Of a stretch of 62,652 nucleotides of DNA, positions 87 through 53,213 are shown one piece after another; within the stretch, counting starts at the first letter, position 1, and every line of letters begins with the position of its first letter. Source of the stretch: Parcubacteria group bacterium (GTDB lineage Bacteria; Patescibacteriota; Minisyncoccia; Phycocordibacterales; Phycocordibacteraceae); NCBI GenBank assembly GCA_028286545.1, contig JAQBRJ010000006.1:1-62652 (forward strand). The letters run 5' to 3'. A program made the position numbers and the translations under genes. The notes beneath the pieces were generated by a model, which saw nothing but the letters and a program-made list of their open reading frames with translations, was not told the DNA's origin and made no database searches.

Positions 87-773
87 ATGATTGTCATTAA
101 AGACCTGCGGGTAGATGTGCTCGGTGAACCTCTCTTTGAGAAGGTTAATCTTGTTATACAGAGCGGAGAGCGCGTCGGGGTACTGTGCACAAAGAAAAGC
201 GATGTAGCTATTTTTCTTGATGCGGTTGCCGGTACATCAGAAACTGACGAAGGTACTATTACCTATGAAGGAGAGCGTATTGGGTATCTTTCAGCTGAAA
301 CATTACAGGGCGGCGCAGAGACGGTGATGCGTGTCTTACATTCACGACCAACCTTCCTCATTTTAAACATGACAGACGTTACGGACGTTGCTGTCACGTC
401 AGCGGTAAAATCATTACTCGCTGGATTTCGCGGAGGAGTACTCATGGGGGCAGAAGATCCTCAACTCATGGAAATGGCAAAGGTTAAGCGAGTTCTCGAA
501 ATACATATCTCTACGAAGTTAATCACTTCGTTTGCTGGTAGCTATACCGATTATTTAATTGAGCGAGAAAAGAATCAGGCGCGGTTTAACGATGCATACG
601 AAAAGCAACAAAAGGAAAAGAGAAGGCTCGAGGATTGGCTTGCGCAGAAACGTGTTGAGGCAGCGAAAGACAAGCGGTCTGCCCAAAAAGGGGCGACCAT
701 TCGCACTAAGGCAAAATATCTTCAGCGCGAGATTTTGGACAAGGAAATACCCAAGCCACTAGAGCTCGAATAA
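87..773 (+). CDS. ABC-F-like single ATPase-domain protein with degenerate catalytic motifs and a charged coiled-coil tail
   Basis: 228-aa ORF with an ABC-domain layout. The Walker A position reads GVLCTKKSD, the signature position ETLQGG and the Walker B position FLILNMTDV. The C-terminal YEKQQKEKRRLEDWLAQKR tract resembles an ABC-F linker. Confidence 0.45.
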   Translation: MIVIKDLRVDVLGEPLFEKVNLVIQSGERVGVLCTKKSDVAIFLDAVAGTSETDEGTITYEGERIGYLSAETLQGGAETVMRVLHSRPTFLILNMTDVTDVAVTSAVKSLLAGFRGGVLMGAEDPQLMEMAKVKRVLEIHISTKLITSFAGSYTDYLIEREKNQARFNDAYEKQQKEKRRLEDWLAQKRVEAAKDKRSAQKGATIRTKAKYLQREILDKEIPKPLELE

Positions 774-785
774 TCTGCAGCGATA

Positions 786-820
786 TATAAAAAAAGAAAC
801 CCACCGCGCAATGCGATAGG
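786..820 (-). terminator. Putative intrinsic terminator downstream of the histidine-phosphatase gene
   Basis: On the minus strand, CCUAUCGC-AUUGC-GCGGUGGG forms an 8-bp stem including G-U pairs. It is followed by UUUCUUUUUUUAUAUA. Confidence 0.4.
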
Positions 821-870
821 CTCCAAGGTTGTAGAAAGATCGATTCGAACGCTACCTGACGATTATTCGT

Positions 871-1500
871 CTATGGATAGAGCTCGAAGGTGGTCAGCGC
901 CGGGTCACAGGTGTTGAATGTGACCCGAAACATCCCGGCTTCCGTCAGATCGAGGTCGTCAAGGAATGCGCCGAGCTCCTCGTTTGCGCCCACGAGAGTC
1001 TCGCCGAGACCTTTCACGGCGAGCTGTATGTATAGCCCGTGCGCCGCGACGAAAATCGTCTGATCGGTTCGGCCCGCGAGGTAACCTGCAAGTGCGCAGC
1101 CAGCTCGCGTACCGATTCGACCAACCGGACTGTCGTTCCAGCCGACCTGGTGCCGCAGATTCAGCGGATGCGTGAGGTATGCGGATGGCGCTGCATTGCC
1201 GACCTCGTCGAAGATCGTATCGATGATCGCACCGTCGGGTCCCTCGGGTGTGTACAGTTCCTTCAGAAGAATGTAACGATCGAGCGGACGCATGGTCGCC
1301 CGTTGCGCCGTTTGAATGGCGCGCTGAGCGATCGAGCTGAACTCGCGGTCGAAGGTGAAAGATTCGAGGACCGGCCGACGCCGAAGGACTTGCTGGATAC
1401 CCTCATTGCTGAGATCCCGAATCAGGTCCCCGCGACGTGTCTTGTGACGAGCTGGATGCGCATTGCCGTGGCGCAAGCCGATTGTCGTTATGATGGCCAT
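871..1500 (-). CDS. Histidine phosphatase superfamily protein (SixA / phosphoglycerate-mutase-like branch)
   Basis: 209-aa ORF with an N-terminal LRHGNA (RHG catalytic motif), then DLIRDLSNEGIQQ, and a second His motif VAAHG. AAGGGAG lies 6 nt upstream of the ATG. G+C is visibly higher than in the neighbours. Confidence 0.7.
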   Translation of the reverse strand: MAIITTIGLRHGNAHPARHKTRRGDLIRDLSNEGIQQVLRRRPVLESFTFDREFSSIAQRAIQTAQRATMRPLDRYILLKELYTPEGPDGAIIDTIFDEVGNAAPSAYLTHPLNLRHQVGWNDSPVGRIGTRAGCALAGYLAGRTDQTIFVAAHGLYIQLAVKGLGETLVGANEELGAFLDDLDLTEAGMFRVTFNTCDPALTTFELYP

Positions 1501-1645
1501 TTCAGGCTCCCTTGTTCAAGTTTCATTGCCTCCCGTCGTGCGACGTAGGTCATGGACAATATAACACTTTAGAGTATTATTGTCAAATACCTCTAATATG
1601 CTATACCTAGCAGTACATTGCGTGCTTTAATTATGAAAAGCAGAT

Positions 1646-2584
1646 ATGGAGCTACTTAAACCCTTCAATCAACTCGGTAAAGACGACGCTGCGATTGCTG
1701 GTGGCAAGGGAGCGTCTCTGGGAGAGATGACCCAGGCTGGCATACCGGTGCCTCCAGGTTTCGTTATCCTCGCTGATGCGTTTGAACGGTTCATCATAGA
1801 GACCGACCTCACAACAGAAATAGATTCGATTCTCGGCAAAGTGAATCATCAGGAGATGCACACAGTTGATCATGCATCGGAGATGATACAAGGATTGATT
1901 TTGAACGTAGAGATGCCAACCGATCTGAAGGAAGAGATCGAGAAATCATTTAAGGATTTGAATACAGAGTTTGTGGCGGTTCGCTCGAGCGCAACGGCGG
2001 AAGACGGAGCGGAAGCAGCCTGGGCAGGACAGCTTGATACCTTCCTCAATACTACGGAGGAAACATTGCTTGAGAAAGTGCGTGAGTGTTGGGCGTCGCT
2101 CTTCACCCCGCGCGCGATCTTCTATCGCTTCGAGAAGGGAATGAATCTCCAGAAGATTTCGGTGGCAGTCGTAGTGCAGAAGATGGTTAATAGCGATACC
2201 GCAGGTATCGCGTTTTCCGTTCATCCTGTTACCGAAGACCATAACCAAATGATCATTGAGGCAGGCTTTGGTTTGGGTGAAGCAGTCGTCTCCGGACAAG
2301 TTACTCCGGACAGCTACGTAGTTACAAAAAGCCCTCGAACAATCGTTGATAAGAATATTAGTGAACAGGCGCAAGGACTGTATCGCAAGGCAGGGGGTGG
2401 TAGTGAATGGAAAGACTTACCAAAGGAGAAGGGTAGTTCTCAAGTGATCACAGACGCACAGATTCTCTCCCTCTCTGAAGTTCTCATCACTATTGAAAAC
2501 CACTATGGTTTTCCCGTAGATACCGAGTGGGCAATGGAGAATGGCGAGCTCTACATTGTGCAGAGTCGTCCAATTACAACGCTT
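1646..2584 (+). other. PPDK_N-type ATP-grasp (nucleotide-binding) domain of the giant ORF
   Basis: aa 1-313 carry all the hallmark motifs of the PEP synthase / PPDK / rifampin-phosphotransferase N-terminal domain. The domain ends at IVQSRPITTL. Confidence 0.85.
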
Positions 2585-5500
2585 CGAGCGTCTTCAACTG
2601 AAAGATCCATGTCCAAAAAGTTTCTGGACGCTATGGGCACTGATGAAATCTTCAAAATTGAAGGAGACTTCATTCCGTTACTCGTATTGATTGATTGGTT
2701 TAACTACCGTGACCAGCAAGGAAATATACAGAATCTCTATCCGGCCATGTGTTTCAAAAGAGACTCTACCGTAAACATCTATTGGAGTCTCACCAAATAT
2801 CGCCACGTATCCAAAGAATTCTTTCAGGCATATTTACAGGGTTCGCTCACCTTACCTGAGTATCAGAAAACATATGATGCTCTCAAGAATGCCATAGATA
2901 GCTTCTATACCTCGTATTATGTTTCTCCTGCTAAGGATGAAAAAGACCTGCTTGCGCGTCTCGATACGGCACATAACTTTCTGCGAGAGATTGACCTTGT
3001 GGCACTTTTCCTCGATGCGCTTGATCAAAAGACGATACGAGAAACGTTAGAAGAACAAAGCATACCGGTCGATCTTTCAAGCATATGGAGAATTTCTCAT
3101 ATTTTGGATACCTATTCATTCCATATAAAAAACAAGGAAGAGATCATTGCACAGCACACAAAACTTCCCGCATCTCTACAATACGTATACTCAAACTACG
3201 TACACATTCTTTCACCCCAAGAAACTATTACGAGAGCCGCGGCAGAAGATATCGATCGACTCAAGAAGGAAGTAGCGGAGAATAAAGCTGAAGCCTCAAA
3301 AAGTGGAGAGCGTAAGCGGGCTGAGGCAGCAAAACTCACGGAGGTTGAACAAAAAGTACTTACCTTTATTGATTACGCTGCAGAACTGCGCGACGACCGA
3401 AAAGCGTTGATTACAAAGTCCGATGTGATGCTTTTCAATCTCGTATCGGACCTTTACAAGCTCTGGGGTGTTCCTCAAGAACTTGTGGATGTGTCGATGG
3501 TAATGGACGTACTCAAGGGTAAAGAACATCTAGAGGCCATGCTTCCTGTGCTCAATGATCGTCTTGGGAAAACGGCAGTCTTCCTTACAAGCGCGCATGA
3601 ATATGAGGAAAATGACACCGAAACTCTAGACGAAGTTGAAGCGGCCTATATGAGGCAGCACACGCCTCACGATGTCACGTCGCTCAAAGGCGAGACAGCA
3701 TCCAGTGGTTTTGTCCGAGGTATCGTGCGAATCATAATCAAGCAGCAAGACTTCGATACGTTCAAAGAAGGGGAAGTGCTCGTTGCTGCAATGACACGCC
3801 CGGAGTTTGTGCCGCTTATGAAAAAGGCAGCGGCTATCGTAACTGATGAAGGTGGTATCACTAGTCACGCTGCAATCGTATCTCGTGAATTAGGAAAGCC
3901 GTGTGTAATTGGTACTCGCGTTGCGACACAAATACTCCACGACGGTGATGAAGTTGAAGTCGACGCTGACAATGGAATCATACGAATCCTAAAGAGTATT
4001 CTCTCCGAAGAAGAGAATAAGAAAGACGCGTTCTTTAATCTCGGTCGTTGGGTTGCTCCTGTTCTGGAATACGAAGCATGGCTGGAATGGTGCAATACTC
4101 CCGAATCGCGTGAAATGGACATTGTTCCGGATTCAGTAACTACGTATGTGCTGGATGGAAATTTCATGCTTGAAGAAGGTGGCGCCTACACTCAACTTAC
4201 TAATACGATCTTGGAAGAGTTTAACCGCGGCGAATATGCGACTGCCCAACACATTAATGAAGTAGCAGAAGCGTTGGCGAACGAATCGAATAATGCGGCT
4301 GACTCATACGGCCAGGCAGCAACACTGAAAGACTTTTTTAATACATTTCCACTCATACAAAGACTTCGCTTCCCCTGGACAGCATGCTTTGCGGTGAGTG
4401 ATGCGGCAGACATATATCTAAAGAATTACGCTGAAAAGAACGGTTTATCAGTAGACTCCTTAAGTTCACAAGTCCCTCAATTAGCGAATCCATTAACGGA
4501 TGATCAAAGAGCGTTGTTTGATTTCAAACAGCAGATTGAAAAATTAGACGCTAACTACAATCTTCAGGATATTAAAGAGATAGATTCGAAGCTTGCGGAA
4601 GGTATAATTAGCTATCAACAAAAGACAGAATACTTTGGGACACATCACTTCTGGGGTGAGCCGCGCACTGAAGAAAAGCTCATGGAGGCAATCAAAGAGG
4701 CTGTCCCAAGCGAGTTACAAGAAGTTGCGGGGCCTATTGATCTTACAGAATTGTTTAGCCTTTTGGCGGATACTACTAAGATTCGCATAGAGTGCGCGGA
4801 GAGTTCATCAAAGCTCGCATATGTATTTCGGTCTGCATTAACTAATCTTGCGAGCACCTATGGACTGGCCTACGAAGATATAATCTTCTTAACCACTGAA
4901 GAACTGCAAGCTCTAGATAAAAAATCTGCTGGTGAGATAGGAGCAATCATTTCCGAACGACAAAAAGGATACGGGCTTTGGAAAGAAGGTGAAACCATAC
5001 AGGTAACCGTAGGTACAGAACTTGAAAGTCAGCTCCAATCGTTTGGACTGAACGTGGACCACGGCGATGTTCAGGAGATCACAGGAAATATTGGCTGCAA
5101 AGGATTCGTGCAAGGAATCGTTGCCATTGTCTTAGTGCCTACGGACAATAAGAAAGTCTTGGATGGAATGATTCTTGTGGCGCCTGAAACTACGCCTGAT
5201 TTCGTTCCTGCCATGGGTAGGGCAGCAGCGTTCGTTACCGATCGTGGAGGAGTGACTTCACATGCTGCAATTATTGCTCGAGAAATGGGCAAGCCATGCA
5301 TCATTGGTACAAAAATAGCGACGCAAGTTCTCAAAGATGGGGATTTGGTGGAAGTCGATGCTAACACTGGGATTGTCAGGCTTCTCTCTAGGCAAAAAGG
5401 ATATACGTATAGTAAGGCGTATACTCGCGAGAATTGTCTTATTGCTATTCAGATTTGGGAAGAACATCAGTGTCATCGTTTAAAGGAGAAGTTTGGCGTG

Positions 5501-8500
5501 GCGGTGCCGCTTTCAATCTTTGATGCGTATCAAGGTGTAGCACGTGTGTATTATCGAGAAGATATTGATGATGCGTGGAGCTCTATTGTCACTGCCAAAG
5601 CTCAAGAAGACAGAAACTTCATACCAGAATTGATGACATGGTATGGAGAACAACTAGATACTCTCGAAGCTATTTGGCACAAGGGAACGCTATCGAGTGC
5701 TAAAGAATTAGATGAGCTTTTTGATCTCGCCTCATGGGCATGGGTAGGATTGTCTATCTCGTACTTCCTCCCGGGCATGGAAGGAATGAGAAAAGAAGAA
5801 CAGGAATTAGGAATGCAGTTGCGAGAACGATCTGCAGACTTCCTCGAGCTTACTGATCACGTAATTCAAGATACGCTTCGCATCTTGTACCCTGCACTCG
5901 GAGATTTAGTGAAATACCTCCGTATTGAGGAAGTTAGATCAGGAGATATTCCGGCCATCGAGATTCTCCGTGAACGAGAAAAGCATTATATCTATTATGA
6001 TTTCAAACTCTACACAAACACGACAATCGATTCACTCCTTAAAGAAAATAATTTCTCCATAGAAGAGGAAGTAGTTCCCACGAATGTTTCAGATATTAGT
6101 GGTCAGACAGCCATGACGGGCATTGCTAAAGGAAAGGTTCGCATCCTACATCGCAAAGCTGATATTTCTTTACTCCAGGATGGAGAGATTTTGGTCACGG
6201 CAATGACCACGCCTGATTATCTTCCCGCAATGTATAAAGCCGCTGCCTTTATCACAGATGAGGGTGGAATCACTTGTCACGCAGCCATTGTCGCTCGTGA
6301 GCTCGGTAAGCCATGTGTCATTGGTACCAAGATCGCAACACAAGTACTGCACGACGGTGATGAAGTTGAAGTGGACGCTGATAATGGAGTGGTCCGTATT
6401 CTCAAAAGTGCGAACACCGAAGCTGTTTTAGTTAAATGTTTCTCTAGAGATCATTCGCTCTTCTATTCATACGTTTGGCGCACCAGTAATTCTGAGAAGG
6501 GGAAGAGGTGGATAGGAACAAATATTGAAGAGGTATTATTTGTGCGACCAGAGGGTCAGGAGGTAGTAGATGTTTATTATTCAGAAAACGAATTTAAACT
6601 CTATGATCGGGCAATCAAGGATAAGATTCTGAGCGATGCACACTGGTTCGCAACCCTCGCAGCTTATTTTGAAAGTGAATGGCAGAAGATACTTCCGTAC
6701 ATACAAAAGAAGGAAATTCTCACACGCCAAGAACTCTCAGAATTTTATGACCATTGGGTTAATTGGTGGGAGCCAATGGCATTCATGATGCAGATTCCTG
6801 AAATTGAGGGAGTTTCTCAAGAGATCAAAGATCAAGCATTTATGCTTCGAGCCGAAACTCAAGAATATTCTGATAGTGGAGACAAGATGTTCCATGCATA
6901 TATGCAGAATGCACATCCTGAACTCTCAAAGTATTTCTCGGTGGTAACTCCTGAGGAAGTGTTTGGTGATACTTTCCCATCCGAATCGATTCTCGAAGCT
7001 CGTTTGGGTGGTTGGTACATGACCAATACTCATTTTGGACTAATCGGAGAATTGCCAAAGGCATTGAAAGAAAGATATTTTGTCCTCGAAGTCACACCAG
7101 TAAATGACACTACTGAATTAAAAGGACAGAGTGCATATAAAGGAATCGTTCGTGGCACGGTGCGCGTTCTAGCACGCCATGATCAAATATCAGAAGTACA
7201 AAAGGGTGAGATTCTTGTTACTGCCATGACCACGCCTGATTTCTTTCCGGCGCTTGAAAAGGCTTCTGCTTTCATAACGGACGAAGGAGGAATTACCTGT
7301 CATGCGGCAATCGTTGCTCGAGAAATGCAGAAGCCTTGTATTATCGGCACTAAATTTGCCACCCAGATTCTTAAAGATGGTGATGAAGTAGAAGTCGATG
7401 CAGACAATGGGGTAGTCCGTATTTTAAAGACAGCTGCAAGCGAAAGAATTGAGTTTATCAAAGAATACACGCGCGACACGACCCTTATCATTCAGCAGGC
7501 TTGGAGTGTCGTGCTTAAAAAGCATCGAAGCGAACTCGGCTTGCATGAATACGACAATCAAACGCTCGTTCTTCATTACCTCCATGACGGCGTGATAGAG
7601 GTATGGGAGAACCATAACTGGACACCTGCATTGATGAATGAAATCCTAAAGAGGAATACGGAAAGCGACACTACATTCAATGACCACATTGAAAAGTTCC
7701 TCAAGGGAATAACATTTTTAAAACCATATTGGGAACAAGGTTTCGTTAGTGATGCAGCAGAACTATCTTCCATAGTCGATCACGTATTTGAAACGATGTA
7801 TCACTTTGACTGGATGTACTATCCTGCGCTCGATGATCGTACACCATTGCCTATTCGAAACAGGGCTCGTGAGCTCCGAGATCAAGATATATTCTTCGAT
7901 CAAACTGACCGCTTCATTAGAAAGAGCCTACTGGCCATCTATCCTAATCTTCAAGGATACGAACAGTGCATACTTCGAGATGAAATTACTGCGCCGCCCT
8001 CTCTTGAAATACTTCGTACGCGTAAACAACACTTTATAGCAATGGGTGATGACGCTTCATATACTGGGACCATAGAGGAATACCAAAAAGAGCATCCCGA
8101 GATGCATTTTGCTGTCGATGCAGCTCCAATCCAAACGGCTACGTTAACCGGTCAGATCGGTAATAAAGGATATGCGAAAGGCATTGTTCGTATTATGAAG
8201 CGCAAAGAACAGATTCCCGATGCTCAAGAAGGAGACATTATTGTGTCGACCATGACTACTCCGGATTTCATTCCGGCCATGCAAAAGGCAGCAGCTATTG
8301 TTACGGACGAAGGAGGGATTACGTGTCATGCAGCAATAGTGGCTCGCGAAATGAACAAGCCGTGTGTGATAGGTACGAAATTTGCCACGCAACTCCTTAA
8401 AGATGGAGACTTCGTGGAGGTCGATGCAGACAACGGGGTAGTAAGAAAGATTGATAGGATTAGCTTCAAGAAATCGTATTCTCGAGATACCACATTGTTT

Positions 8501-10981
8501 ATGCAGGAGCTCTGGGCTAAAGGACTTATTGAACTCCCTGAAGCAAAATTTGGATGGAAGAATCCATATCTCCCGCTCGTAGCTCATTACGTTAATGATG
8601 GGGTTGTTGAGATATGGGAACACCAAGAAGCAATTTCGTGGCTCCTTGACCGGTTACTCCAGGAGAATAAGAAAGGTTCGGCTTTTTTGGAAGGCATCTT
8701 TAAAGAATATAAGGCACTCTTGAAGAAACTAAAGAAATTTCATAATAAGGAATCTCTATCAACCAAAGAGGCTGAAGAGTATGTAGATCTCATATACGAT
8801 GCTGCCTTCGCTATGACCTTGTTCTTTTACACGGGCTCAGACGAGCGAAGTCCAAAGGACGCACTCGAAATTTCTGTCAAAGCCCGTGAGATAGAAGACT
8901 TCTTTGCTGGTAATGATGTATTCGTAAGAAAGATCATTACCAATACGGCACACATTTCTGAAGAATTGGCAGGAGTCGTTCTTGCTGAAGAATTGAGTGC
9001 AAATGCGATACCTTCTTCTGAGACTCTTCAAAATCGACTTAAGAACTATCTTCTCATTGATGGGATGGAACGATGGACGAGTTCTCTCAAAGATTTTTCT
9101 ATAGCGTTCCCTGAATACATTTTCTTAGAGACAGAGGTAGAAGCGACCACTGAACTTCGTGGTCAATCAGCCTATAACGGAGTTGTTCAAGGCTCCGTAC
9201 GAATTGTTCGTAAACAGAGCGATATGGCAAAAGTTCTTGAAGGCAATATTCTCGTTTCGCCTATGACTACTCCTGATTTCCTTCCTGCCATGCTGCGAGC
9301 GGCAGCATTCGTAACGGATGAAGGAGGTATCACGTGTCATGCGGCAATTGTTGCTCGCGAGATGAAGAAACCTTGCGTAATAGGTACAAAAATTGCCACA
9401 CAGATTTTAAAGGATGGAGACGAAGTAGAGGTAGACGCAATCAACGGAATCGTTCGAATATTGAAATCGAACAGTGTAGTACGATCGCTCAGCAAAGAAG
9501 ACATTGTTATCGGTGATTGGGAATTTGAAGCGCAGCAGCGCGGTGAGCAACCAATCTTCCTCTGCGATCTCTTTAGTCGTGCCTTGGTTGGCATGATTCA
9601 TGAAATGACAGGAAAGAACGAATACTACGACTATCTCTTTACCGATTCGGACAAGCTCAACCACAGTCCCAAGCATCGAGATATCGTGTTGAACAAGACG
9701 CGCGAGGATATGCTCGATCCAGCAAAGAGAAAGGAATTCCTTCGGGGTTCAATAGAGATTCCTATGAGCTTCAATGCTGTTGCTGATGAAATTAATGAAA
9801 AGGTCAATGATTCTGTTTCAAACAAAGAGCTCGCACGACTCTGGAGAAATATGGATCGTGATTTCCTCAAGGTGATCCCATGGTTCTACTACCCGTGGTA
9901 TGTCTCGAAAGAGAATATGCTCACTGACTTTGTTAAAGCTGGGTTAGAGAAGCATCGTACTGAGATTGAAAAGGTCTGCGATATGGACGAAGCGCTTTTG
10001 GCGATAGTATTCCCGATAAAGAAAACGAACTTCCAGCTTGAGCAAGATGAGATGCTCGGACTCGTAACCATTGCTGAAGAGAATTCTGACTTTACAAACG
10101 ACGCCGTATTTAAGCAGCATGCTGCAGAGTACCTCAAGAAATATGACTACCTCACGACGTTCATACTTTCGCCGATACTCCCAATGACCTATGAACAACT
10201 CGTTGAACGGGTCAGTCAGAATGTAAAAGAATCATTCAAAGACAACTATGAGATTCAAAAGGAGGCAACACTCAAGAATCAGGAACGCGCAGAGCAGATT
10301 CTGAAGATAGTTTCTGATGACAACGAGATCATGCCGTGGATTGAGGACTCACGAGAACTTGGCTACGTGCTTACGGCAGGAATTGAAGAAGCGTATATGG
10401 CGTCTGCTCGCTATCTACCGTTTATACAATTCGTTGCAAAGCGAATCGGTGTGACATTTGAAGATACGAAATATCTTCTCTCTAATGAGATTGCCACCGC
10501 GCTAGAAGAAGATAAAAAGATTCCAGCAGAACTCATTGATGAGCGTCGTGACGGCTTTGTTCTCATGATGAAAGACGGCGTGCAATACACACTCTTTGGA
10601 AAGAAGGGTCATGAACTTAGCGCATGGATTGATAGCGAACTAAATAAGGTAGATGCATCGATCACAGAATTTACGGGGCAGCGTGCGTGTAAGGGCTTTG
10701 CAAAAGGGAAAGTTCGAATTGCAACCACTCCCGCACAAGCACATCTTCTTCAGGAAGGGGAGATACTCGTGTGTCCCATGACAAACCCTGACTACGTGCC
10801 TGCTATGCGCCGCTCTGCAGCTATCGTCACGGACGAAGGCGGATTGCTTTGCCACGCAGCAATTATGTCTCGTGAGTTCAACAAGCCCTGTATCATCGGC
10901 ACAAAGATTGCAACGCAGCTTTTGAAGGATGGAGATATGGTTGAGGTTGACGCAGACAAGGGAATTGTAAGAAAGCTATAA
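1646..10981 (+). CDS. Giant (3,111 aa) ATP-grasp / poly-swivel phosphotransferase: one PPDK_N domain plus seven PEP-utilising-enzyme mobile phosphohistidine domains
   Basis: Single uninterrupted ORF. The N-terminus carries [39 protein letters not shown] and VQSRPIT. There are seven copies of GG(I/V/L)(T/L)(S/C)HAAI..RE..KPC(V/I)IGT....L.DGD.VEVDA. No PEP/pyruvate TIM-barrel motifs are present. Confidence 0.92.
   Translation: [3111 protein letters not shown]
3683..3997 (+). repeat. Swivel phosphohistidine domain copy 1 of 7 (catalytic His codon 3866-3868, aa 741)
   Basis: [15 protein letters not shown]...[69 protein letters not shown]. Confidence 0.9.
5078..5392 (+). repeat. Swivel phosphohistidine domain copy 2 of 7 (His codon 5261-5263, aa 1206)
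   Basis: [15 protein letters not shown]...[67 protein letters not shown]. Confidence 0.9.
6095..6409 (+). repeat. Swivel phosphohistidine domain copy 3 of 7 (His codon 6278-6280, aa 1545)
   Basis: [15 protein letters not shown]...[69 protein letters not shown]. Confidence 0.9.
7118..7432 (+). repeat. Swivel phosphohistidine domain copy 4 of 7 (His codon 7301-7303, aa 1886)
   Basis: [15 protein letters not shown]...[69 protein letters not shown]. Confidence 0.9.
8144..8458 (+). repeat. Swivel phosphohistidine domain copy 5 of 7 (His codon 8327-8329, aa 2228)
   Basis: [15 protein letters not shown]...[67 protein letters not shown]. Confidence 0.9.
9155..9469 (+). repeat. Swivel phosphohistidine domain copy 6 of 7 (His codon 9338-9340, aa 2565)
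   Basis: [15 protein letters not shown]...[69 protein letters not shown]. Confidence 0.9.
10670..10978 (+). repeat. Swivel phosphohistidine domain copy 7 of 7 (His codon 10853-10855, aa 3070); the protein ends with it
   Basis: [15 protein letters not shown]...[67 protein letters not shown] followed by the stop codon. Confidence 0.9.
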
Positions 10982-10992
10982 ATACTATAATC

Positions 10993-11583
10993 ATGATCAA
11001 AGCCGTCATATTCGACCTCAACGGAGTCTTTATTCATAGCGAGAGATTGAGTGATCGCTTTGAACGCGACTTCGGCGTTCCCGTATCTGAATTTCTTCCG
11101 AAGCTTGGAGAAATAATGGACTTCGTGCGGAAGCCTGGTGCTGAGCCGGCGTTCAGGTATTGGGAACCTGCTCTGAAAGAATGGAATATATCCATGACAG
11201 AAGAGGAACTCTGGAAGTACTGGTTTGACGCTGAGATTCCTTCGGAAGAAATGATCGCTCTTGCACGGGAGTTGAAAGAGAAAGGAATAAAAGTCATAAC
11301 CCTTTCCAATAACTTTAAGGAGCGCGCAGAATACTACGGTCACTACCCTTGGATGCAGGATGTCATGGATAAGACGTATTTCTCATGGAAGACTGGGTTG
11401 GTGAAGCCAGATGTGGAAGCGTGGAAACTGGTTCTGTCAGATTTCGCACTTGAGCCGAGCGCGTGCCTCTATTTTGACGATCAACAAAAGAATCTGGATG
11501 CAGCTGAGAGTGTAGGAATACAATCGTGTATGTTTAAAAGTCCTGAAGATACGCGTACAATCATTGAGAATAGTATTTCATAA
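10993..11583 (+). CDS. HAD-superfamily hydrolase / phosphatase (subfamily IA-like)
   Basis: 196 aa. Motif I is AVIFDLNGV (second Asp replaced by Asn). TLSNN and the C-terminal YFDDQQKNLDAA fit HAD motifs II-IV. The gene starts 12 nt after the giant ORF stop. Confidence 0.7.
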   Translation: MIKAVIFDLNGVFIHSERLSDRFERDFGVPVSEFLPKLGEIMDFVRKPGAEPAFRYWEPALKEWNISMTEEELWKYWFDAEIPSEEMIALARELKEKGIKVITLSNNFKERAEYYGHYPWMQDVMDKTYFSWKTGLVKPDVEAWKLVLSDFALEPSACLYFDDQQKNLDAAESVGIQSCMFKSPEDTRTIIENSIS

Positions 11584-11588
11584 ATATC

Positions 11589-11957
11589 ATGTCATCCAAG
11601 CCAACTCTTCGCACGCCAGAAGCAGAACAAATATATAGAGAGTATCGTGCCAGTCTCCATCCGGACGATCCATGCGCCTTGTGCAATAAAGCGCCGGCAA
11701 CAAAATCATTTACACACTGGAAGATTGCCGAGAACTCATTCCCCTATGATCGTATCGCACAGAAACACGATATGCTTATGCCCATTAGGCACGTCACGGA
11801 AGCAGGCCTCACAGACGAAGAAGTACGAGAACTTTCAGAGATCAAAAATACTTCGATTGAAGAGTACAACTGGATACTTGAACCGACCCATAGCAACAAG
11901 TCGATCCCAGGCCATTTTCATCTGCATCTCATAGTAGGAAAGCTGTCAGAAGTCTAA
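11589..11957 (+). CDS. HIT (histidine triad) family protein
   Basis: 122 aa with a C-terminal histidine triad HFHLHLIV and an upstream CALC motif. It lies 5 nt after the HAD gene. Confidence 0.6.
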   Translation: MSSKPTLRTPEAEQIYREYRASLHPDDPCALCNKAPATKSFTHWKIAENSFPYDRIAQKHDMLMPIRHVTEAGLTDEEVRELSEIKNTSIEEYNWILEPTHSNKSIPGHFHLHLIVGKLSEV

Positions 11958-11987
11958 TATACGCCGAGGGCTGTTCTCAAATCCCTC

Positions 11988-12605
11988 ATGGCGTATACTA
12001 AGGACATGAACACGAACACATCGGAATTCCTTAAGAAATGGGGCGGAATATTGGTTACGCTAGTATTGCTTATAGTAGCTGGCCTTTTCATTACCTACAG
12101 CAAGAAATCAGCACCCGTAACACCGTCTGATTCTGCCGCCCTTTACCCAGGCCTCGCTTCAACGAGCGCATCCGCTCAAACAGGAGCAGGTACTTCAAAG
12201 CCTGTGAAGGGTCTCGTTGCTACGCCGGTTACCACAAACGCGACATACACCAATCCTTCTTGGGCTATCAAGTTTACCGTTCGCGGGGATTGGACATTGA
12301 ATACCATTCCCGATAGTACCGGTAAGCTTCATCAGGTCCAGCTTTCCGGTACAAAGAATGTAGTCTTCATTAGTAAGGACGAAGCGATCGGTCTTTCAGG
12401 CGACCTCGCGTATACGACTTCGACACGGACTATCGACGGACAGACGGTAACTGTTCGCACCTACAAGACTCCAAGCTCACAGTTTGCGGTATACCAACTC
12501 TTCACCCTTAAAGCTGCAGACGGAAACTACTCATTCCTCATCAAGAACGTATCTGCAGATACAAGCCAGACTGACTCGTTCATCAACTCGATCTCTAATT
12601 CTTAG
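11988..12605 (+). CDS. Hypothetical membrane-anchored protein
   Basis: 205 aa with one N-terminal TM helix (ILVTLVLLIVAGLFITY), a Ser/Ala/Thr-rich linker and a beta-rich C-terminal region. No family recognised. Confidence 0.5.
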   Translation: MAYTKDMNTNTSEFLKKWGGILVTLVLLIVAGLFITYSKKSAPVTPSDSAALYPGLASTSASAQTGAGTSKPVKGLVATPVTTNATYTNPSWAIKFTVRGDWTLNTIPDSTGKLHQVQLSGTKNVVFISKDEAIGLSGDLAYTTSTRTIDGQTVTVRTYKTPSSQFAVYQLFTLKAADGNYSFLIKNVSADTSQTDSFINSISNS

Positions 12606-12614
12606 AAATTACGC

Positions 12615-13160
12615 ATGGAGGCGAATATCTGGTTCTACACCTTTAGCACCGCCGCCCAAGTGATGGCGGGATTGGTAGGTCTATTCGCTGTCTTCGTGGT
12701 GTATAAGATTCAGGATTTTGGAGATACGCTTGAATCGGTGCGTAAACAATTTGTGAATGTTATTTCGCATGCGTCGAATAACACTGATGACTACGTGTCT
12801 ATCAAGTACGAAGATGCGCTCGTCATGGATGATTCGACGGTCCTTAATCATGCAAATAAGTTGCTTGCGCTGTATAACGATGTGCAAAAGCCACAGAAGC
12901 TTGTTATCCCTCATCTCACGAGAGAGAACCGCGATCTGTTTCAAACGTTAATTAGTACCAAACGTTACATCGTACACAAACTGGTTATTACGCTCGTATT
13001 GAGTCTTCTTGCCATAGCAATATCTCTATTTGCCCTTATCGCTACCAATTACTTCATCGGGTACAATCACGCGGTTCTGTTTCAGAATGTCTTCTACCTC
13101 TACTTCCTATTTTGTCTGGGATATATGGGGGTTGGTATCTACAAGATCGCCATCAAGTAA
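12615..13160 (+). CDS. Hypothetical integral membrane protein
   Basis: 181 aa with hydrophobic helices at both ends and a soluble middle. No family recognised. Confidence 0.5.
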   Translation: MEANIWFYTFSTAAQVMAGLVGLFAVFVVYKIQDFGDTLESVRKQFVNVISHASNNTDDYVSIKYEDALVMDDSTVLNHANKLLALYNDVQKPQKLVIPHLTRENRDLFQTLISTKRYIVHKLVITLVLSLLAIAISLFALIATNYFIGYNHAVLFQNVFYLYFLFCLGYMGVGIYKIAIK

Positions 13161-13163
13161 CAT

Positions 13164-13604
13164 ATGCAAATTAAAGAGTTGGGACACATTGTGCTGTACG
13201 TGACGAATGTCACGACGATGGCAAACTTTTATCGCGATACATTAGGCTTCAAAGAAATTGCACGTGAGCCTGGAATAGCGCTCTTTTCTTCCGGACGTAC
13301 GCATCACGAGATGCTTCTTATTGAAATAGGAGGTCGCCCAAAGCCCCAGCACGCACCCGAGCCAGGGTTGTATCACATCGGTTTCAAAATAGGAGATAGT
13401 ACTGAAGATGTGAAACAGGCATTCAAAGAACTCACACAGGCTGGCGTTACCATTATAGGCACGACTGACCACGGCGTAACGCATTCGTTGTATATTCTCG
13501 ATCCAGACGGCAACGAACTTGAACTGTATGCTGATGTGTCTGATGCTTGGAAGACTGACCCACAGGCGGTCCTTACTCCTGCACGTAGATTGGATCTCTC
13601 GTAG
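13164..13604 (+). CDS. VOC family protein (glyoxalase / bleomycin resistance / extradiol dioxygenase fold)
   Basis: 146 aa. LGHIVLYVTN...FYRDTLGF and HHEMLL...LYHIGF...SLYILDPDGNELELY are typical VOC beta-alpha-beta-beta-beta modules. Confidence 0.75.
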   Translation: MQIKELGHIVLYVTNVTTMANFYRDTLGFKEIAREPGIALFSSGRTHHEMLLIEIGGRPKPQHAPEPGLYHIGFKIGDSTEDVKQAFKELTQAGVTIIGTTDHGVTHSLYILDPDGNELELYADVSDAWKTDPQAVLTPARRLDLS

Positions 13605-13643
13605 AGTGCCTGAAGTTCGGAGTGGGTGGAGTATGATATTCAT

Positions 13644-15392
13644 ATGACCCTACTCTTTATTTCGTTTGTAGCAGGACTCCTCACGGTCCTTGCCCCATGT
13701 GTTCTTCCGCTTCTACCGGTTATTATCGGCGAGTCGATAAGCGGGAAGCCGAGCCGTAAGCGCGCGGTTGTAACTATCGCATCGCTGGGTATTTCGCTCT
13801 TCCTTTTTACATTCCTGCTCAAGGTTTCGACAGTACTCATTCATGTGCCGCTTGAAGCGTTGTCGATAGTGTCCGGAGCGTTGCTTATTATTTTTGGATT
13901 ACTCACTGTCTTTCCGCAGTTATGGGATCACTTTGGTCTTGCGAATGCGTTGAACAAAAGCTCGAACCGCGTGATGGGGCAGGGCTTTATGAAGCAAAGT
14001 TTGGTTGGAGATATTATCGTTGGCGCTGCACTGGGTCCGGTATTTTCAAGTTGCAGCCCGACATACTTCCTTATTCTCGCCACGGTGCTTCCGGTGAGTT
14101 TGGCTATGGGTGTTGCATATCTCACGGTCTATATCTTTGGATTGTGTCTTGCTCTCTTTGCTATTGCGGTGCTTGGACAGCACTTGGTTATGAAGCTCGG
14201 CATTGTTTCGAATCCTGAAGGATGGCTTATGCGTTCGATTGGTATGTTATTTATCATCATCGGCTTACTCGTTATTTCAGGCATTGATAAAAAGATTGAG
14301 GCCAGCGTGCTTGCGCACGCTGGCATATTCGATGTAACGAGGATTGAGCAGCACCTTCTTACCGCGGGAAGCTCGGGTGGAACAGCAAATTCAATTGTGT
14401 ATGGGGAACAGCTTACTCCTGAACAGAAGGCAGCGAAGTACACAAAGGCGCCAGAACTCGTAAAACCTGATGGATATTTGAACACTGACGGGCAGCCGAT
14501 AACCATCGGACAATTCAAAGGAAAGAAAGTCGTTCTTATCGATTTCTGGACCTACAGCTGCATCAACTGTCAGCGAACCATTCCATATTTGAATCAGTGG
14601 TATGCAAAGTATAAAGACCAAGGGCTTGAGATAATTAGCGTGCATACGCCCGAGTTTGCCTTTGAGCACGAGCAGACAAATGTGGCAGCCGCACTCAAGC
14701 AGTTCGGTATTGAATACCCCGTAGTGCTCGATAACGAATATCAGACCTGGAATGCCTTTGGGAATCAGTTTTGGCCGCGTGAATATTTGATTGATATCGA
14801 TGGCTATGTCGTGCACGATCACGCAGGGGAAGGGGAATACGATGTGACGGAAAAGGCAATACAAGCTGCGCTCGCGGAGCGAGCGCAGCGTCTAGGTACG
14901 GATCCATCAATGATTGCATCAGGCACGGTCTCCATTGCTGACCCGAATCTTCAAGAAGTGCAGAGCCAAGAAACGTACTTTGGCTACAATCGTAACAAAT
15001 ACCTGGCGAATGGAACTCCAGGCCAAAGCGGAACCCATACCTATTCATTCCCGACGGCTACGGTACCGAACTTACTCTACTTACAGGGCACGTGGAATAT
15101 TGGAAAGGAATACGCAACGGCTTCCGCAGACGCGCACATCAAGTTTAGCTATGGTGCACACGATGTGTATTTCGTGGCGAGTGCCGGGGTGCCAGTCTCA
15201 GTGACCGTACTTCGTGACGGAGTTCCGGTAGGCACTATGGCAGGAAGTGACGTTGATCCAAAGACGTCCACGGTAACTATCGGAAGTCAGCGATTGTACC
15301 GACTCATTCACGACACCAGCGCCGGCGCTCACACTATTGAACTCATCATCCATGGTAGCGGCTTGAACGCGTATACCTTTACATTTGGTTAA
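13644..15392 (+). CDS. dipZ: DipZ-type protein: CcdA/DsbD-like membrane domain fused to a thioredoxin-like domain and a C-terminal DipZ domain
   Basis: TM domain with LAPCVLPLLP and SSCSPTYF cysteines, and a thioredoxin-like WTYSCINCQRTIP (CxxC). The ATG is at 13644; the ORF track extends to a GTG at 13626. Confidence 0.8.
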   Translation: MTLLFISFVAGLLTVLAPCVLPLLPVIIGESISGKPSRKRAVVTIASLGISLFLFTFLLKVSTVLIHVPLEALSIVSGALLIIFGLLTVFPQLWDHFGLANALNKSSNRVMGQGFMKQSLVGDIIVGAALGPVFSSCSPTYFLILATVLPVSLAMGVAYLTVYIFGLCLALFAIAVLGQHLVMKLGIVSNPEGWLMRSIGMLFIIIGLLVISGIDKKIEASVLAHAGIFDVTRIEQHLLTAGSSGGTANSIVYGEQLTPEQKAAKYTKAPELVKPDGYLNTDGQPITIGQFKGKKVVLIDFWTYSCINCQRTIPYLNQWYAKYKDQGLEIISVHTPEFAFEHEQTNVAAALKQFGIEYPVVLDNEYQTWNAFGNQFWPREYLIDIDGYVVHDHAGEGEYDVTEKAIQAALAERAQRLGTDPSMIASGTVSIADPNLQEVQSQETYFGYNRNKYLANGTPGQSGTHTYSFPTATVPNLLYLQGTWNIGKEYATASADAHIKFSYGAHDVYFVASAGVPVSVTVLRDGVPVGTMAGSDVDPKTSTVTIGSQRLYRLIHDTSAGAHTIELIIHGSGLNAYTFTFG

Positions 15393-15438
15393 ACAGCCTC
15401 TCCGCGGGTCAGTGATATACTGACACTAAGAGCTCCGT

Positions 15439-16269
15439 ATGACTGAAGACGTTACTTATCTCATCCACCGCACTACTGAATTCTTCCGTATACGTTTTAT
15501 TGCGCATGCGAACGGTATCGCCAAGGCGTCCCTGATTCTTATTGCCGGTATTATTGGCTACTACCTCACAGCAGCCCTCATACGAAAGATCTTGCTGAAG
15601 AGTCGAGTGCAGGACGCATTTGCTCGCATACTCGTCGACAATGTCTACAAGACCATTGTTATTGTCATTACGATAATTACTGCAGCAAATCAGCTCGGTA
15701 TTAATATCACGGCGCCGCTCGCAGGTCTTGGTATCGCTGGTATCGCTATTGGTTTCGCTGCGCAGGATTCGTTGTCGAATATCATTGCTAGCTTCCTGAT
15801 TTTCTTTGATAAGCCATTTCGCGTAGGGGACTACATTACGCTTGGTGAGTACTATGGCCGTATTGAGCGCATTACTATGCGTAGCACGCGCATTCGTACG
15901 CAGGACAATACCTATGTGGTAATTCCGAATCAGAAAATTATTAACGATGTGCTTATCGATCACACAACCAATGGCGACACACGCATTGTGATACCGGTGA
16001 GTATTGGATATGAGGCGTCAATTGATGCCGCTCGTGAAGCTATCCTTGCACAGGTCTCACTTATTGAAGGAGTTGCACAGAATCCTGCTCCCGATGTGGT
16101 GGTAAATACGCTTGGAGATTCGGGAGTGAATTTGCTTGTACGTGTTTGGATTAAAGATGCGTCCATTGAACGTCGAACATTCTTTAGAACTGTTGAAACT
16201 ACAAAGCGAGCACTTGATGCTGCGGGCATCTCCATACCGTATCCGCATGTAGAAATCGTGAAGAAATAA
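15439..16269 (+). CDS. Mechanosensitive ion channel (MscS family)
   Basis: 276 aa with TM helices followed by FDKPFRVGDYITLGEYYGRIERITMRSTRIRTQDNTYVVIPNQKI, the MscS beta-domain signature. Confidence 0.85.
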   Translation: MTEDVTYLIHRTTEFFRIRFIAHANGIAKASLILIAGIIGYYLTAALIRKILLKSRVQDAFARILVDNVYKTIVIVITIITAANQLGINITAPLAGLGIAGIAIGFAAQDSLSNIIASFLIFFDKPFRVGDYITLGEYYGRIERITMRSTRIRTQDNTYVVIPNQKIINDVLIDHTTNGDTRIVIPVSIGYEASIDAAREAILAQVSLIEGVAQNPAPDVVVNTLGDSGVNLLVRVWIKDASIERRTFFRTVETTKRALDAAGISIPYPHVEIVKK

Positions 16270-16337
16270 TACTGCGCATTGCGGTATACGGTCGCTCTCT
16301 TACGACGTCTGTAGTAAAATGGAGTATTCGTTTCCGT

Positions 16338-18083
16338 ATGCCTAAACCTCCTAAATCTACAGCACCAGACACTTCTCCGAGCTTGCTCGCACTCCTTCGC
16401 CCTTATACGGGATGGGTGATATTGCTCGTGGTGCTTACCGTAATAGGAAGCGCCTTGAACCTCGTAATTCCACAAATCTTTGCACGAGCGATTGACTCAT
16501 ACACGGCAGGAACCCTTAACCTTACGGTAACGCTGGTGTGGTTTGGTATCGTTGCAGCCGGTATCTTTTTGATGAATGCACTTCAGGGCATTGTGCAGAC
16601 GTATGCCTCTGAAATGGTTGCGCGCGACCTTCGTATGAAAGTCGCCGCTGCCATATCACTTCAAGAATATGCAGCAATTGAGGCGCTTACTCCTTCTAAA
16701 CTCCTTACGAATCTCACCTCAGATGTAGACGCAGTGAAGACGTTCGTTGCGCAAGCGATAGCGTCCATCATCTCTTCTGTCTTTATCATCATTGGTGCTT
16801 CTGCACTTTTGCTCTATTTGAACTGGAAGCTTGCGCTCGCCGTGCTCCTCATACTTCCGTTCATAGCGGGCACCTTCTATATTGTGCTCGGTCGTGTACG
16901 CAAACTCTTCCGCCAAGCTCAGGAAATGATCGATCGACTCAATAAGGTTATTAATGAAAGTATTCTTGGCGCTGCGCTTGTACGGTTACTCCATTCACAA
17001 CAGCGCGAGTACGAAAAGTTCATCGATGCAAACGATGGAGCACGCGGGATCAGTATGCAGATCTTGAAGCTCTTTGCCTCCATGATTCCTGCTATTACGT
17101 TCCTTACGAATCTCGCAACACTCACGATCCTCTTGCTGGGCGGCAGCTTTGTTATTCATAGTTCCATGACGCTTGGACAATTCGCCGCATTCAATAGCTA
17201 CCTCGGTATTCTTATCTTCCCAATTATCATTATTGGTTTTATGAGCAATGCCATCGCACAGGCACAGGCTTCGTACGGTCGCATTGCTCAAGTACTTACG
17301 GCAACCGTTCGTCCAGATACGGGCACAATCACAAAACCACTTACGGGCGAGATTACGGTCAAAGACCTCTCACTAACCTACAAAGAAAATCATGTGCTCA
17401 AGGATGTGTCGTTTGAAATCAAAGCGGGTACGAAGAACGCAATCATCGGACCAACGGCTGCTGGCAAGTCGCAGCTTTTCTATATCATGACCGGCCTTCT
17501 TGCACCTACGGCAGGCGTTGTTGAGTTTGATGGATATCCAATTGCTGAATATGCAAAGCACGATTTGCATGCGCAGATTGGGTTTGTCTTCCAAGATAGC
17601 GTGCTCTTTAACCTTACGCTTCGTGAAAATATTGCCTTTAGCGATCGTGTCGCAGACGAAGACCTTGCAAAGGCTATCGACACGGCTGAACTCCACGACT
17701 TTATCAATCAATTACCCAAGGGCTTGGATACCGTGGTGTCTGAGCGAGGTACGTCACTTTCCGGTGGGCAGAAGCAGCGCGTGATGCTTGCGCGTGCATT
17801 AGCGCTTAATCCAAAGATTCTTTTGCTCGATGACTTCACGGCACGTGTTGATCCTGCGACAGAAGAAAAGATTCTAGGGAATGTTTTGAAGAATTATCCT
17901 GATCTTACCCTCATCTCTATTACGCAAAAGATTGCGCCGGTTGAAAAGTACGACCAGATACTTCTTCTTATGGAAGGGGAAGTGCTTGGTCGTGGCACGC
18001 ACGCAGAGCTTATGAGCACGAGCCCAGAGTACGTGCAGATATTTGATTCGCAAAAGAGCACGGAAGAGTTTGAGACCGCATAA
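16338..18083 (+). CDS. ABC exporter, fused permease/ATPase subunit (heterodimer partner 1)
   Basis: 581 aa. Six-TM exporter domain then an NBD with GPTAAGKS, LSGGQKQR and LLLDDFT. Confidence 0.9.
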   Translation: MPKPPKSTAPDTSPSLLALLRPYTGWVILLVVLTVIGSALNLVIPQIFARAIDSYTAGTLNLTVTLVWFGIVAAGIFLMNALQGIVQTYASEMVARDLRMKVAAAISLQEYAAIEALTPSKLLTNLTSDVDAVKTFVAQAIASIISSVFIIIGASALLLYLNWKLALAVLLILPFIAGTFYIVLGRVRKLFRQAQEMIDRLNKVINESILGAALVRLLHSQQREYEKFIDANDGARGISMQILKLFASMIPAITFLTNLATLTILLLGGSFVIHSSMTLGQFAAFNSYLGILIFPIIIIGFMSNAIAQAQASYGRIAQVLTATVRPDTGTITKPLTGEITVKDLSLTYKENHVLKDVSFEIKAGTKNAIIGPTAAGKSQLFYIMTGLLAPTAGVVEFDGYPIAEYAKHDLHAQIGFVFQDSVLFNLTLRENIAFSDRVADEDLAKAIDTAELHDFINQLPKGLDTVVSERGTSLSGGQKQRVMLARALALNPKILLLDDFTARVDPATEEKILGNVLKNYPDLTLISITQKIAPVEKYDQILLLMEGEVLGRGTHAELMSTSPEYVQIFDSQKSTEEFETA

Positions 18084-18090
18084 ACTTTAT

Positions 18091-21703: not shown

Positions 21704-21717
21704 GCTATACTTGTGGC

Positions 21718-47828: not shown

Positions 47829-47841
47829 CCCACACTTATTT

Positions 47842-53209: not shown

Positions 53210-53213
53210 GCCT

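Follow-up and report, generated by a model that had tools for sequence, protein, structure and literature searches.

We examined a 62,652-nucleotide stretch of DNA from a Parcubacteria group bacterium (NCBI GenBank assembly GCA_028286545.1, contig JAQBRJ010000006.1, positions 1 to 62,652 of the forward strand; hereafter the window), in which a single giant gene encodes one ATP-grasp domain followed by seven modules, each made of a spacer domain and a phosphohistidine swivel domain. Taken together, the evidence leads us to a reading that we regard as probable, if by no means certain—the gene would encode a poly-modular small-molecule dikinase of the rifampin phosphotransferase (RPH) type, with one nucleotide site feeding many modules in parallel. 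This assignment draws on sequence comparison, structure models and analogy with characterised enzymes.

The reading frame runs uninterrupted from ATG to stop over 9.3 kb (the coordinates of all features are collected in Table 1), and its 3111-aa product is 100% identical to the NCBI entry 'PEP-utilizing enzyme mobile domain protein [Parcubacteria group bacterium]' (P0001 among the protein clusters discussed below). Pfam placed PPDK_N (PF01326) at aa 17-323 (E 2.6e-101) and found seven stretches of the swivel domain PF00391 (summed E 6.6e-187). A motif search returned the catalytic His of GG..(S/C)HAAI in 7 of 7 copies, at exactly the positions given in a preliminary description of the window, made from the sequence alone, whose single ATP-grasp and seven swivels are thereby confirmed. 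The C-terminus follows 41 residues past His3070. Spacers 1-7 measure 367, 365, 239, 241, 242, 237 and 405 aa and are mostly helical with a small sheet in the models described below, in line with the helical domains of 235-400 aa first proposed. The PEP-utilizers_C domain (PF02896) of phosphoenolpyruvate (PEP) synthases was absent from the giant protein according to Pfam, and tblastn with three PEP-utilizers_C domains from bona fide PEP synthases gave no match below E = 0.2 in the window, bearing out the statement that neither the gene nor the window holds a PEP/pyruvate TIM barrel. The ATP-grasp domain itself carries the motifs GGKGASLGEM, VAVRSSATAED and IVQSRPIT, which are common to PEP synthase. 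With tblastn, the 62 kb window contains only one ATP-grasp against eight swivels—a one-to-many stoichiometry—and the eighth swivel (56643-56942) lies 44 kb from the giant gene in a free-standing module that the preliminary inventory had missed. As a side observation, in modules 1-6 a Thr precedes the catalytic His by two residues (GGxT[S/C]H), a position that is a regulatory phosphorylation site in PEP synthase (PEPS) as well as in pyruvate phosphate dikinase (PPDK); Leu occupies it in module 7 (GGLLCH; swivel 10679-10978) and in the free-standing module (GGMLCH). The GC content of the giant gene (0.43-0.46 over positions 2001-10000) is slightly under that of most of the window (0.46-0.52).

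The spacers were less readily classified. None of the seven gave a Pfam match, even at E up to 1; spacer 1 has no sequence match in the PDB, and no spacer matches the rifampin-binding domain (RIF-BD) of RPH in sequence. By BLAST within the giant protein, spacers 3-6 group together as one family (20-27% identity), the relationship between spacers 2 and 7 is weak (22%, E 1e-5), and spacer 1 stands alone. Profile comparison with hhalign showed that homology among the long spacer families (about 360-420 aa) extends from end to end, with a probability of 97-99.9% for most pairs. Matches of the short families (about 240-280 aa) to the long ones cover the N-terminal 100-120 and the C-terminal 90 residues of the latter, and the short spacers thus look like long ones from which the middle stretch is missing. 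Confident models of module 1 (aa 316-782; pLDDT 91.9, pTM 0.88) and module 5 (aa 1928-2269; pLDDT 94.5, pTM 0.89), computed with AlphaFold2 from family alignments, show a small β-sheet at the N-terminus and, after it, a bundle of helices. For both models, Foldseek ranked RPH-Lm (5FBT, 5FBU, 5HV1, 5FBS) first in the PDB (E 2.7e-12 for module 1 and 1.0e-11 for module 5; alignments of 390-570 columns), and RPH was the sole structure aligned beyond the swivel, all others matching the swivel alone. Moreover, NCBIfam models of RPH-type proteins continue from the swivel upstream into spacers 2, 3 and 7, over 70-170 residues; the A1 profile reached RPH from residue 685 onwards only. Judged from models and profiles together, the seven spacers are diverged relatives of the RPH substrate-binding domain. 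The earlier proposal of an RPH-type dikinase extended by six further substrate-domain-plus-His modules is therefore upheld by the top fold match, by NCBIfam, by hhalign and by the Arg spacing described below.

Two other ideas on the spacers were dropped. Diverged PEP/pyruvate TIM barrels, which the preliminary description had named as an outcome that would overturn its proposal, were ruled out, as the models consist of helices plus a small sheet and their Foldseek matches are to RPH, not to TIM barrels. Family M (from P0065 and P0066), labelled 'rifampicin phosphotransferase' by JGI and carrying PF27448, was considered as a bridge to RPH-Lm and abandoned, its spacer having no phmmer match to RPH-Lm; with this bridge gone, the hhalign link between families E and M does not by itself tie the spacers to RPH.

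A further line of evidence comes from one residue. In modules 1-7, an Arg lies 159, 159, 152, 151, 150, 151 and 167 residues before the catalytic His, and it is the most conserved residue of the otherwise highly divergent spacers—present in 42 of 42 family A modules, 28 of 28 of family C, 12 of 14 of family H (Lys in 2) and 4 of 5 of family N (Lys in 1). In RPH-Lm, Arg666 contacts the transferred phosphate within the key set Arg666/Glu667/Lys670, and the Arg-Glu pair and the Lys are retained even in distant RPH-like clades (PMC4844700). The distance from Arg666 to His825 of RPH-Lm is 159 residues, equal to the spacing in modules 1 and 2. The R-D-x-x-K pattern is complete in module 1; R-[DE] is found in modules 3, 5, 6 and 7, and in modules 2 and 4 the acid stands at +2 of the Arg. 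Since the conserved Arg recurs module by module, every spacer may be taken as a working phosphoryl-acceptor site.

The architecture is not unique to the giant protein. In a family search covering 5.8 billion proteins, at least 66 clusters (P0001-P0066, 1,722-4,275 aa) have exactly one ATP-grasp and 3-9 spacer-swivel modules, nearly all of which retain the catalytic His; with 7 modules against a maximum of 9, the giant gene is among the longest of the family. The sequences come from assemblies of NCBI, JGI, ENA and Logan, and some of them lie on contigs 0.2-0.9 Mb long. Named bacterial hosts are Parcubacteria, Paceibacterota or Patescibacteria, and named archaeal hosts are Woesearchaeota, Nanoarchaeota or simply 'archaeon'. 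A scan of 185,579 species genomes added further multi-swivel loci in Nealsonbacteria, Falkowbacteria, Paceibacterota, Woesearchaeota and Nanoarchaeia. The family seems largely confined to bacteria of the Candidate Phyla Radiation (CPR) and DPANN archaea. Three loci with many swivels or a full-length module match (L015, L020 and L028; L020 has eight swivels) lie in third-party annotation (TPA) assemblies labelled 'uncultured Gammaproteobacteria'; either the family extends beyond CPR and DPANN, or these labels are unreliable.

Within the family, the modules behave as cassettes. The 276 spacer-swivel modules of the 66 proteins fall into about 14 spacer families, which mostly occur once per protein, in an order that differs in all 66 proteins (C-H-A-A-A-A-N here); no module family is favoured beside the ATP-grasp, which is mostly N-terminal and lies C-terminally or internally in several clusters. 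For 202 of the 276 swivels, the nearest relative belongs to the same spacer family of another protein, and for only 13 to the same protein. Nearest relatives found across proteins indicate that the modules are old spacer-swivel cassettes that have been reshuffled; recent intragenic duplication or concerted evolution of swivels was ruled out on the same count. Close relatives illustrate the pace of this process. The syntenic relative P0002 has an ATP-grasp 92% identical to that of the giant protein and a different module set; module 4 (spacer 71% identical) and module 7 (spacer 86% identical) have true orthologues, and the orthologue of module 1 is module 2 of P0009 (spacer 74% identical). By these sequence comparisons, module turnover is fast between close relatives.

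Modules also occur without an ATP-grasp of their own. The free-standing module of the window has orthologues fused directly after the ATP-grasp in P0003, P0004, P0009 and P0025, and these fusions are evidence that free modules may cooperate with the giant protein's ATP-grasp. Of 9 loci examined, 7 (L001, L002, L003, L004, L085, L086 and L088) have spacer-swivel-only genes of 342-527 aa that adjoin the giant gene on the same strand; in L001, the ATG of the stand-alone module lies 3 nt past the stop of the giant gene. A profile of the short spacer only, searched against 1.84 billion representative proteins, gave 600 matches at E ≤ 1e-3, falling to 433 at ≤ 1e-10 and to 92 at ≤ 1e-30—so few that the short spacer must be a rare domain. 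Among the best 150 of these matches, the commonest form, with 105 proteins (median 341 aa), is the stand-alone single module that lacks an ATP-grasp; 30 combine an ATP-grasp with 1-6 swivels. The stand-alone modules are all metagenome proteins. Fifteen of the 105 are longer, at ~560 aa, and place two tandem short spacers before one swivel (e.g., P0114, P0119, P0120, P0122 and P0125), which suggests, from sequence, that one carrier domain can serve two acceptor domains.

On this basis, a mechanism can be proposed. By homology, the N-terminal ATP-grasp would bind ATP and pass its β-phosphate to a swivel His, with AMP and Pi as the other products. The phospho-His swivel would then dock on its own upstream RPH-like substrate-binding domain, where the invariant Arg would position the phosphoryl group for transfer to an acceptor, most likely a small-molecule hydroxyl. 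Seven modules with seven different pockets would be served in cis, and at least one more, the free-standing module, would be charged in trans—making the giant protein a battery of kinases with different specificities around one nucleotide site. Analogy with known dikinases is what predicts the β-phosphate chemistry, the charging of all modules by one ATP-grasp, the parallel mode and the small-molecule nature of the acceptors; by the same analogy, the charging in trans of free-standing modules is plausible.

Several observations weigh against this interpretation. Swivels 1-6 are tethered at both ends, whereas the swivel of RPH is C-terminal, and up to about 2,700 residues separate swivels from the ATP-grasp, so that charging would have to depend on a flexible chain, a compact fold or encounters between molecules. 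The Glu and Lys that accompany the Arg in RPH are only partly kept, with an acid at +1 in 5 of 7 modules and Lys at +4 in module 1 only, and it is by spacing and conservation that the spacer Arg is equated with Arg666. The TM-scores to RPH are modest (0.31-0.49), as expected with much shorter, divergent domains, and the RIF-binding domain is about twice as long as the short spacers. As to the gene neighbourhood, homologues of the histidine-phosphatase-superfamily (His_Phos_1) gene that precedes the giant gene occur in 5 of 21 multi-swivel loci, a count limited by the short flanks of many loci. The detoxification role considered below is guilt by association, and the phosphatases could equally fit a phosphorylate-then-process pathway.

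The preliminary description had left two mechanisms side by side, a parallel multi-substrate array and an intramolecular His-to-His phosphorelay; we favour the former and disfavour the latter. In a relay, the ATP-grasp would charge only the adjacent swivel 1, from which the phosphate would pass from swivel to swivel to a single acceptor at the end, the spacers serving as scaffolds. The seven near-equivalent His domains in series, at 57-75% protein identity much better conserved than the spacers, would suit such a chain, transfer between like His sites should be close to energetically neutral, and HpeH alone moves phosphate between two substrates via its His (PMC12167813). What speaks for the parallel array is that every module has an acceptor site with its invariant Arg, that the order of modules is not conserved and none is preferred next to the ATP-grasp, that the ATP-grasp can stand at either end or internally, and that free-standing single modules are so common. 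We know, moreover, of no precedent for swivel-to-swivel transfer, and we consider a relay very unlikely. The unusual cell envelopes of CPR organisms, together with the membership of four of the seven spacers in one family, A, would fit a different proposal, in which all modules act on one substrate, large or polymeric (such as a glycan, a polyol or a polymer linked to lipid), and phosphorylate it at several positions. Dikinases of the superfamily do act on polymers, glucan water dikinase (GWD) being an example (PMC13553574). However, the family A spacers of the giant protein have diverged to the low identities given above, each being closer to an orthologue elsewhere than to its neighbours; module sets differ between close relatives; Pfam found no carbohydrate-binding module in the giant protein or its spacers; and the fold match is a small-molecule pocket domain. 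A single polymeric acceptor is accordingly an unlikely one.

Other chemistries are conceivable on the same scaffold. The modules might be regulatory and directed at proteins, undergoing His autophosphorylation and then docking on or modifying partner proteins; the His_Phos_1 superfamily, represented next to the giant gene, includes phosphohistidine phosphatases such as SixA. VadK of M. tuberculosis, a PPDK-derived, autophosphorylating regulatory kinase that binds metabolic enzymes, offers a model (PMC13400623). Yet VadK, by its derivation, is not of the RPH type, whereas the spacers match the RPH substrate-binding domain and keep the phosphate-contacting Arg, and no candidate partner genes are conserved across the loci examined. 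Alternatively, phosphorylation could activate a carbonyl for condensation in biosynthetic assembly, as in PigC, HapC and RedH, which share the three-domain RPH-like plan and whose NCBIfam models match the ATP-grasp and swivels (PMC13534948). These matches are limited to the ATP-grasp and the swivel, however, at 331 bits against a cut-off of 1300, and no biosynthetic genes (polyketide synthase, nonribosomal peptide synthetase or pyrrole pathway) are present in the window. CPR genomes also have little secondary metabolism. Neither chemistry has specific support, though individual modules might follow one or the other; we hold the regulatory one to be highly improbable and the ligase one a little more so. 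Finally, the source is a metagenome-assembled genome and the L001 locus is split into genes of 2360 and 364 aa, which might point to a chimeric assembly of paralogues or to a decaying gene. An open frame of 3111 codons in DNA of 44% GC could not arise by chance, however, and all seven His and seven Arg are intact. The swivel-coding copies share merely 61-73% DNA identity, so that collapse or expansion of identical repeats is not the explanation, and the same plan recurs in 66 independent clusters, on many contigs of up to 900 kb. These facts also settle the concern over repeat number raised in the preliminary description. The split genes of L001 have ATGs of their own and gaps of 3-6 nt, and therefore look like real separate genes. 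An artefact or a pseudogene is thus extremely improbable.

Comparison with known systems helps to place the giant protein. RPH-Lm (5FBT, 5HV1; PMC4844700) has the same order of ATP-grasp, helical substrate domain and His swivel as aa 1-782 here, and RPH likewise combines a conserved ATP-grasp and swivel with a rapidly diverging middle domain. In contrast, RPH has one substrate-domain-swivel unit per ATP-grasp, against seven in the giant protein and 3-9 in the family, and its RIF-binding domain measures roughly 440 aa, against 237-242 (short) or 365-405 aa (long) for the spacers. The giant protein is not an RPH orthologue, as its score with the equivalog model NF041857 is 362 bits against a cut-off of 999; NF000283 gave 249 against 1700. 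For the ATP-grasp and swivel, archaeal PEP synthase is the closest in sequence (8A8E, E 9.7e-101; also aligned to 9DAE). PEPS and PPDK have a TIM barrel and a single swivel, however, whereas the giant protein has multiple swivels and no barrel; with this defining barrel tested for and absent, the protein is not a member of the PEPS/PPDK group, and the PEPS equivalog models also remain under their cut-off (473.5 vs 598 bits).

The separation of charger and acceptor has a precedent in HpeHI, CreHI and PpsAB (phenylphosphate synthase), in which an ATP-grasp subunit and a separate substrate-swivel subunit convert ATP to AMP; HpeI (ATP-grasp only) and HpeH work without a stable complex, and a change of the conserved His in HpeH abolishes activity (PMC12167813). 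There, as in the free-standing module and beside most homologues of the giant gene, the substrate-swivel unit is a polypeptide of its own, but one ATP-grasp subunit serves one acceptor subunit, whereas here the ATP-grasp is fused and faces seven modules in cis and at least one in trans. Those systems act on phenolic substrates in catabolic operons; the hosts here are CPR and DPANN, in which we know of no aromatic catabolic pathways. In the phosphotransferase system (PTS), one charger likewise feeds many acceptors via phospho-His (Enzyme I to HPr to many Enzymes II), and the His domain of Enzyme I is a homologue of the swivel; the donor there is PEP, acting with HPr and Enzymes II, whereas here it would be ATP via the ATP-grasp, with no HPr or Enzyme II and with the specificity modules in one chain. 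The prodiginine ligases PigC, HapC and RedH show that the RPH-like scaffold supports chemistry that goes past simple kinase end products, but they have a single module and a biosynthetic context not present here. Pfam found no HisKA/HATPase_c, HPt or receiver domain in the giant protein or its spacers, a Response_reg_2 match at E 0.25 being noise.

We found no description of multi-swivel proteins in full-text searches of the literature, in agreement with the earlier statement that no characterised enzyme has this architecture. We therefore regard the giant gene and its relatives as a new variant—a one-to-many, cassette-built dikinase family of CPR and DPANN that breaks the one-module plan of RPH. 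If one ATP-grasp does charge seven to eight carriers, the swivel mechanism, with its one-to-one (PPDK, PEPS, RPH) and two-component (HpeHI) versions, would gain a one-to-many version, raising the structural question of how doubly tethered distal swivels reach a single nucleotide site. With CPR and DPANN genomes of roughly 1 Mb, the hosts spend up to about 1% of the genome on such a gene. Fast module turnover and the efflux and detoxification setting described below point to a possible adaptive repertoire against chemical diversity, whether for resistance or for scavenging, and the about 14 spacer families would represent a ready-made library of small kinase modules (340-500 aa) that can be separated and put to use in biocatalysis or in the search for substrates. 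Automated annotation reduces the family to 'PEP synthase' or 'rph-like' hits, and a survey of the CPR resistome merely counts the latter (PMC8651080).

The genes around the giant gene (Table 1) make the window unusually rich, over 1-44000 and 50977-54752, in efflux, resistance and stress functions. Upstream, the intergenic promoter matches read TGGACA-16-TATTAT on the + strand and TTGACA-17-TATATT with TG on the - strand; they are the two best matches in 700-16500, in which the total match count is not above that of shuffles. Downstream, no + strand terminator-like site lies between the dikinase gene and the HAD-IA phosphatase gene, and the two are probably co-transcribed. The three ORFs that follow gave no Pfam, NCBIfam or PADLOC match; the syntenic locus L001 has ORFs matching them in size and order. 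No Rfam families or tRNAs were found in the window.

Table 1. Features of the 62,652-nt window, with the giant dikinase gene and its parts listed first.
Feature	Coordinates	Strand	Basis or remark
Poly-modular dikinase, whole gene, 3111 aa; one ATP-grasp and seven spacer-swivel modules	1646-10981	+	ORF, Pfam
ATP-grasp domain, aa 1-315; sole copy in window	1646-2590	+	PF01326; PDB alignments to PEP synthase/RPH; tblastn
Module 1, aa 316-782; long spacer family C (aa 316-682); Arg582/Asp583/Lys586, His741	2591-3991	+
Module 2, aa 783-1247; long spacer family H; Arg1047, His1206	3992-5386	+
Module 3, aa 1248-1586; short spacer family A; Arg1393/Glu1394, His1545	5387-6403	+
Module 4, aa 1587-1927; short spacer family A; Arg1735, His1886	6404-7426	+
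Module 5, aa 1928-2269; short spacer family A; Arg2078/Asp2079, His2228	7427-8452	+
Module 6, aa 2270-2606; short spacer family A; Arg2414/Glu2415, His2565	8453-9463	+
Module 7, aa 2607-3111; long spacer family N; Arg2903/Glu2904, His3070	9464-10978	+
Free-standing eighth module, 488 aa; long spacer family H and swivel (His444), no ATP-grasp	55488-56954	+	start TTG from ORF finder, uncertain
ABC-F fragment (partial)	87-773
His_Phos_1, histidine-phosphatase superfamily; divergent from giant gene	871-1500	-
Two overlapping divergent sigma-70-like promoter matches, intergenic	1553-1586	both	consensus match only
HAD-IA phosphatase; starts 12 nt past dikinase stop	10993-11583	+	same order in L001
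Three consecutive ORFs (122, 205, 181 aa) between HAD and VOC genes	11589-13160	+
VOC/FosA-like protein	13164-13604
ResA-like thioredoxin	13626-15392
MscS channel	15439-16269
Two ABC exporter half-transporters	16338-19881
GST	21035-21658
EamA	21688-22140
MsrA	22149-22637
MOSC	22671-23453
VanX-like M15 peptidase	26989-27657
MFS transporter	27905-29161
Second ABC-F	31860-33335
Y-family polymerase	35937-37238
AcrB-type RND pump	38727-41867	-
HlyD partner of RND pump	41887-43512	-
MliC-like lysozyme inhibitor	47761-48720
HlyD-like genes, upstream of free-standing module	50977-53209
MFS transporter, upstream of free-standing module	53214-54752

Parts of this neighbourhood recur elsewhere. Of 9 annotated loci, 7 have phosphohydrolase-family genes (HAD, His_Phos_1, NUDIX, HD or LMWPc) no more than 7 kb away, and the distant homologue P0006, with an ATP-grasp region about 40% identical, is flanked by MOSC, HAD, two NUDIX, VOC, His_Phos_1, pirin and ABC-F genes. 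Relatives of the His_Phos_1 gene recur beside multi-module dikinase genes of Parcubacteria; compared with the 5 of 21 multi-swivel loci mentioned above, none of 68 other loci has a homologue, and the association is real but partial. At positions 15087-17012 of L001, whose ATP-grasp is 92% identical, the 2360-aa gene is followed by the 364-aa stand-alone module and then by a 274-aa protein with the N-terminus IFFIRHSKATYG, in which the RH(G/S) motif of the histidine-phosphatase superfamily can be seen by eye, having been missed by the Pfam precomputation; if this protein is phosphatase-like, three such genes would stand at one dikinase locus.

As regards function, the idea of a known anti-phage defence system was dropped, PADLOC having returned no match for the modules or the neighbouring genes. 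The wealth of detoxification and efflux genes favours, by association, the handling of diverse small molecules, and we tentatively suggest that the dikinase might inactivate or trap diverse membrane-permeant compounds, be they xenobiotics, antibiotics or scavenged metabolites. More speculatively, and with a good deal of doubt, the CPR and DPANN proteins might form a cassette-based hub for phosphoryl distribution, in which one charger would serve up to ten or more rapidly exchangeable His-carriers with different pockets, fused or free; through them, these ultra-small symbionts would phosphorylate, and in this way trap or neutralise, many small molecules of the host or the environment. Under this hub proposal, the neighbouring histidine-phosphatase-family proteins could be dedicated partners for resetting or processing, and the whole would amount to a general way, not recognised before, in which organisms with minimal genomes capture metabolites or defend themselves chemically.

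The family search also brought up other unusual dikinases. A separate group of 4,300-4,900 aa (P0075-P0092) has two ATP-grasps and two swivels with ~1,800 unannotated residues between. Giant fusions (P0073, P0074, P0076, P0079, P0085, P0086 and P0096) join a complete PEP synthase to glycolytic enzymes, including PGK, TIM, enolase, phosphoglycerate mutase, aldolase, PGI and PFK; P0086 is from Omnitrophota according to its source. Finally, in a set of PEP synthases (P0067-P0072 and P0083), of which the source-named member comes from Woesearchaeota, the ATP-grasp is split by ~500 residues with intein and LAGLIDADG homing-endonuclease domains.

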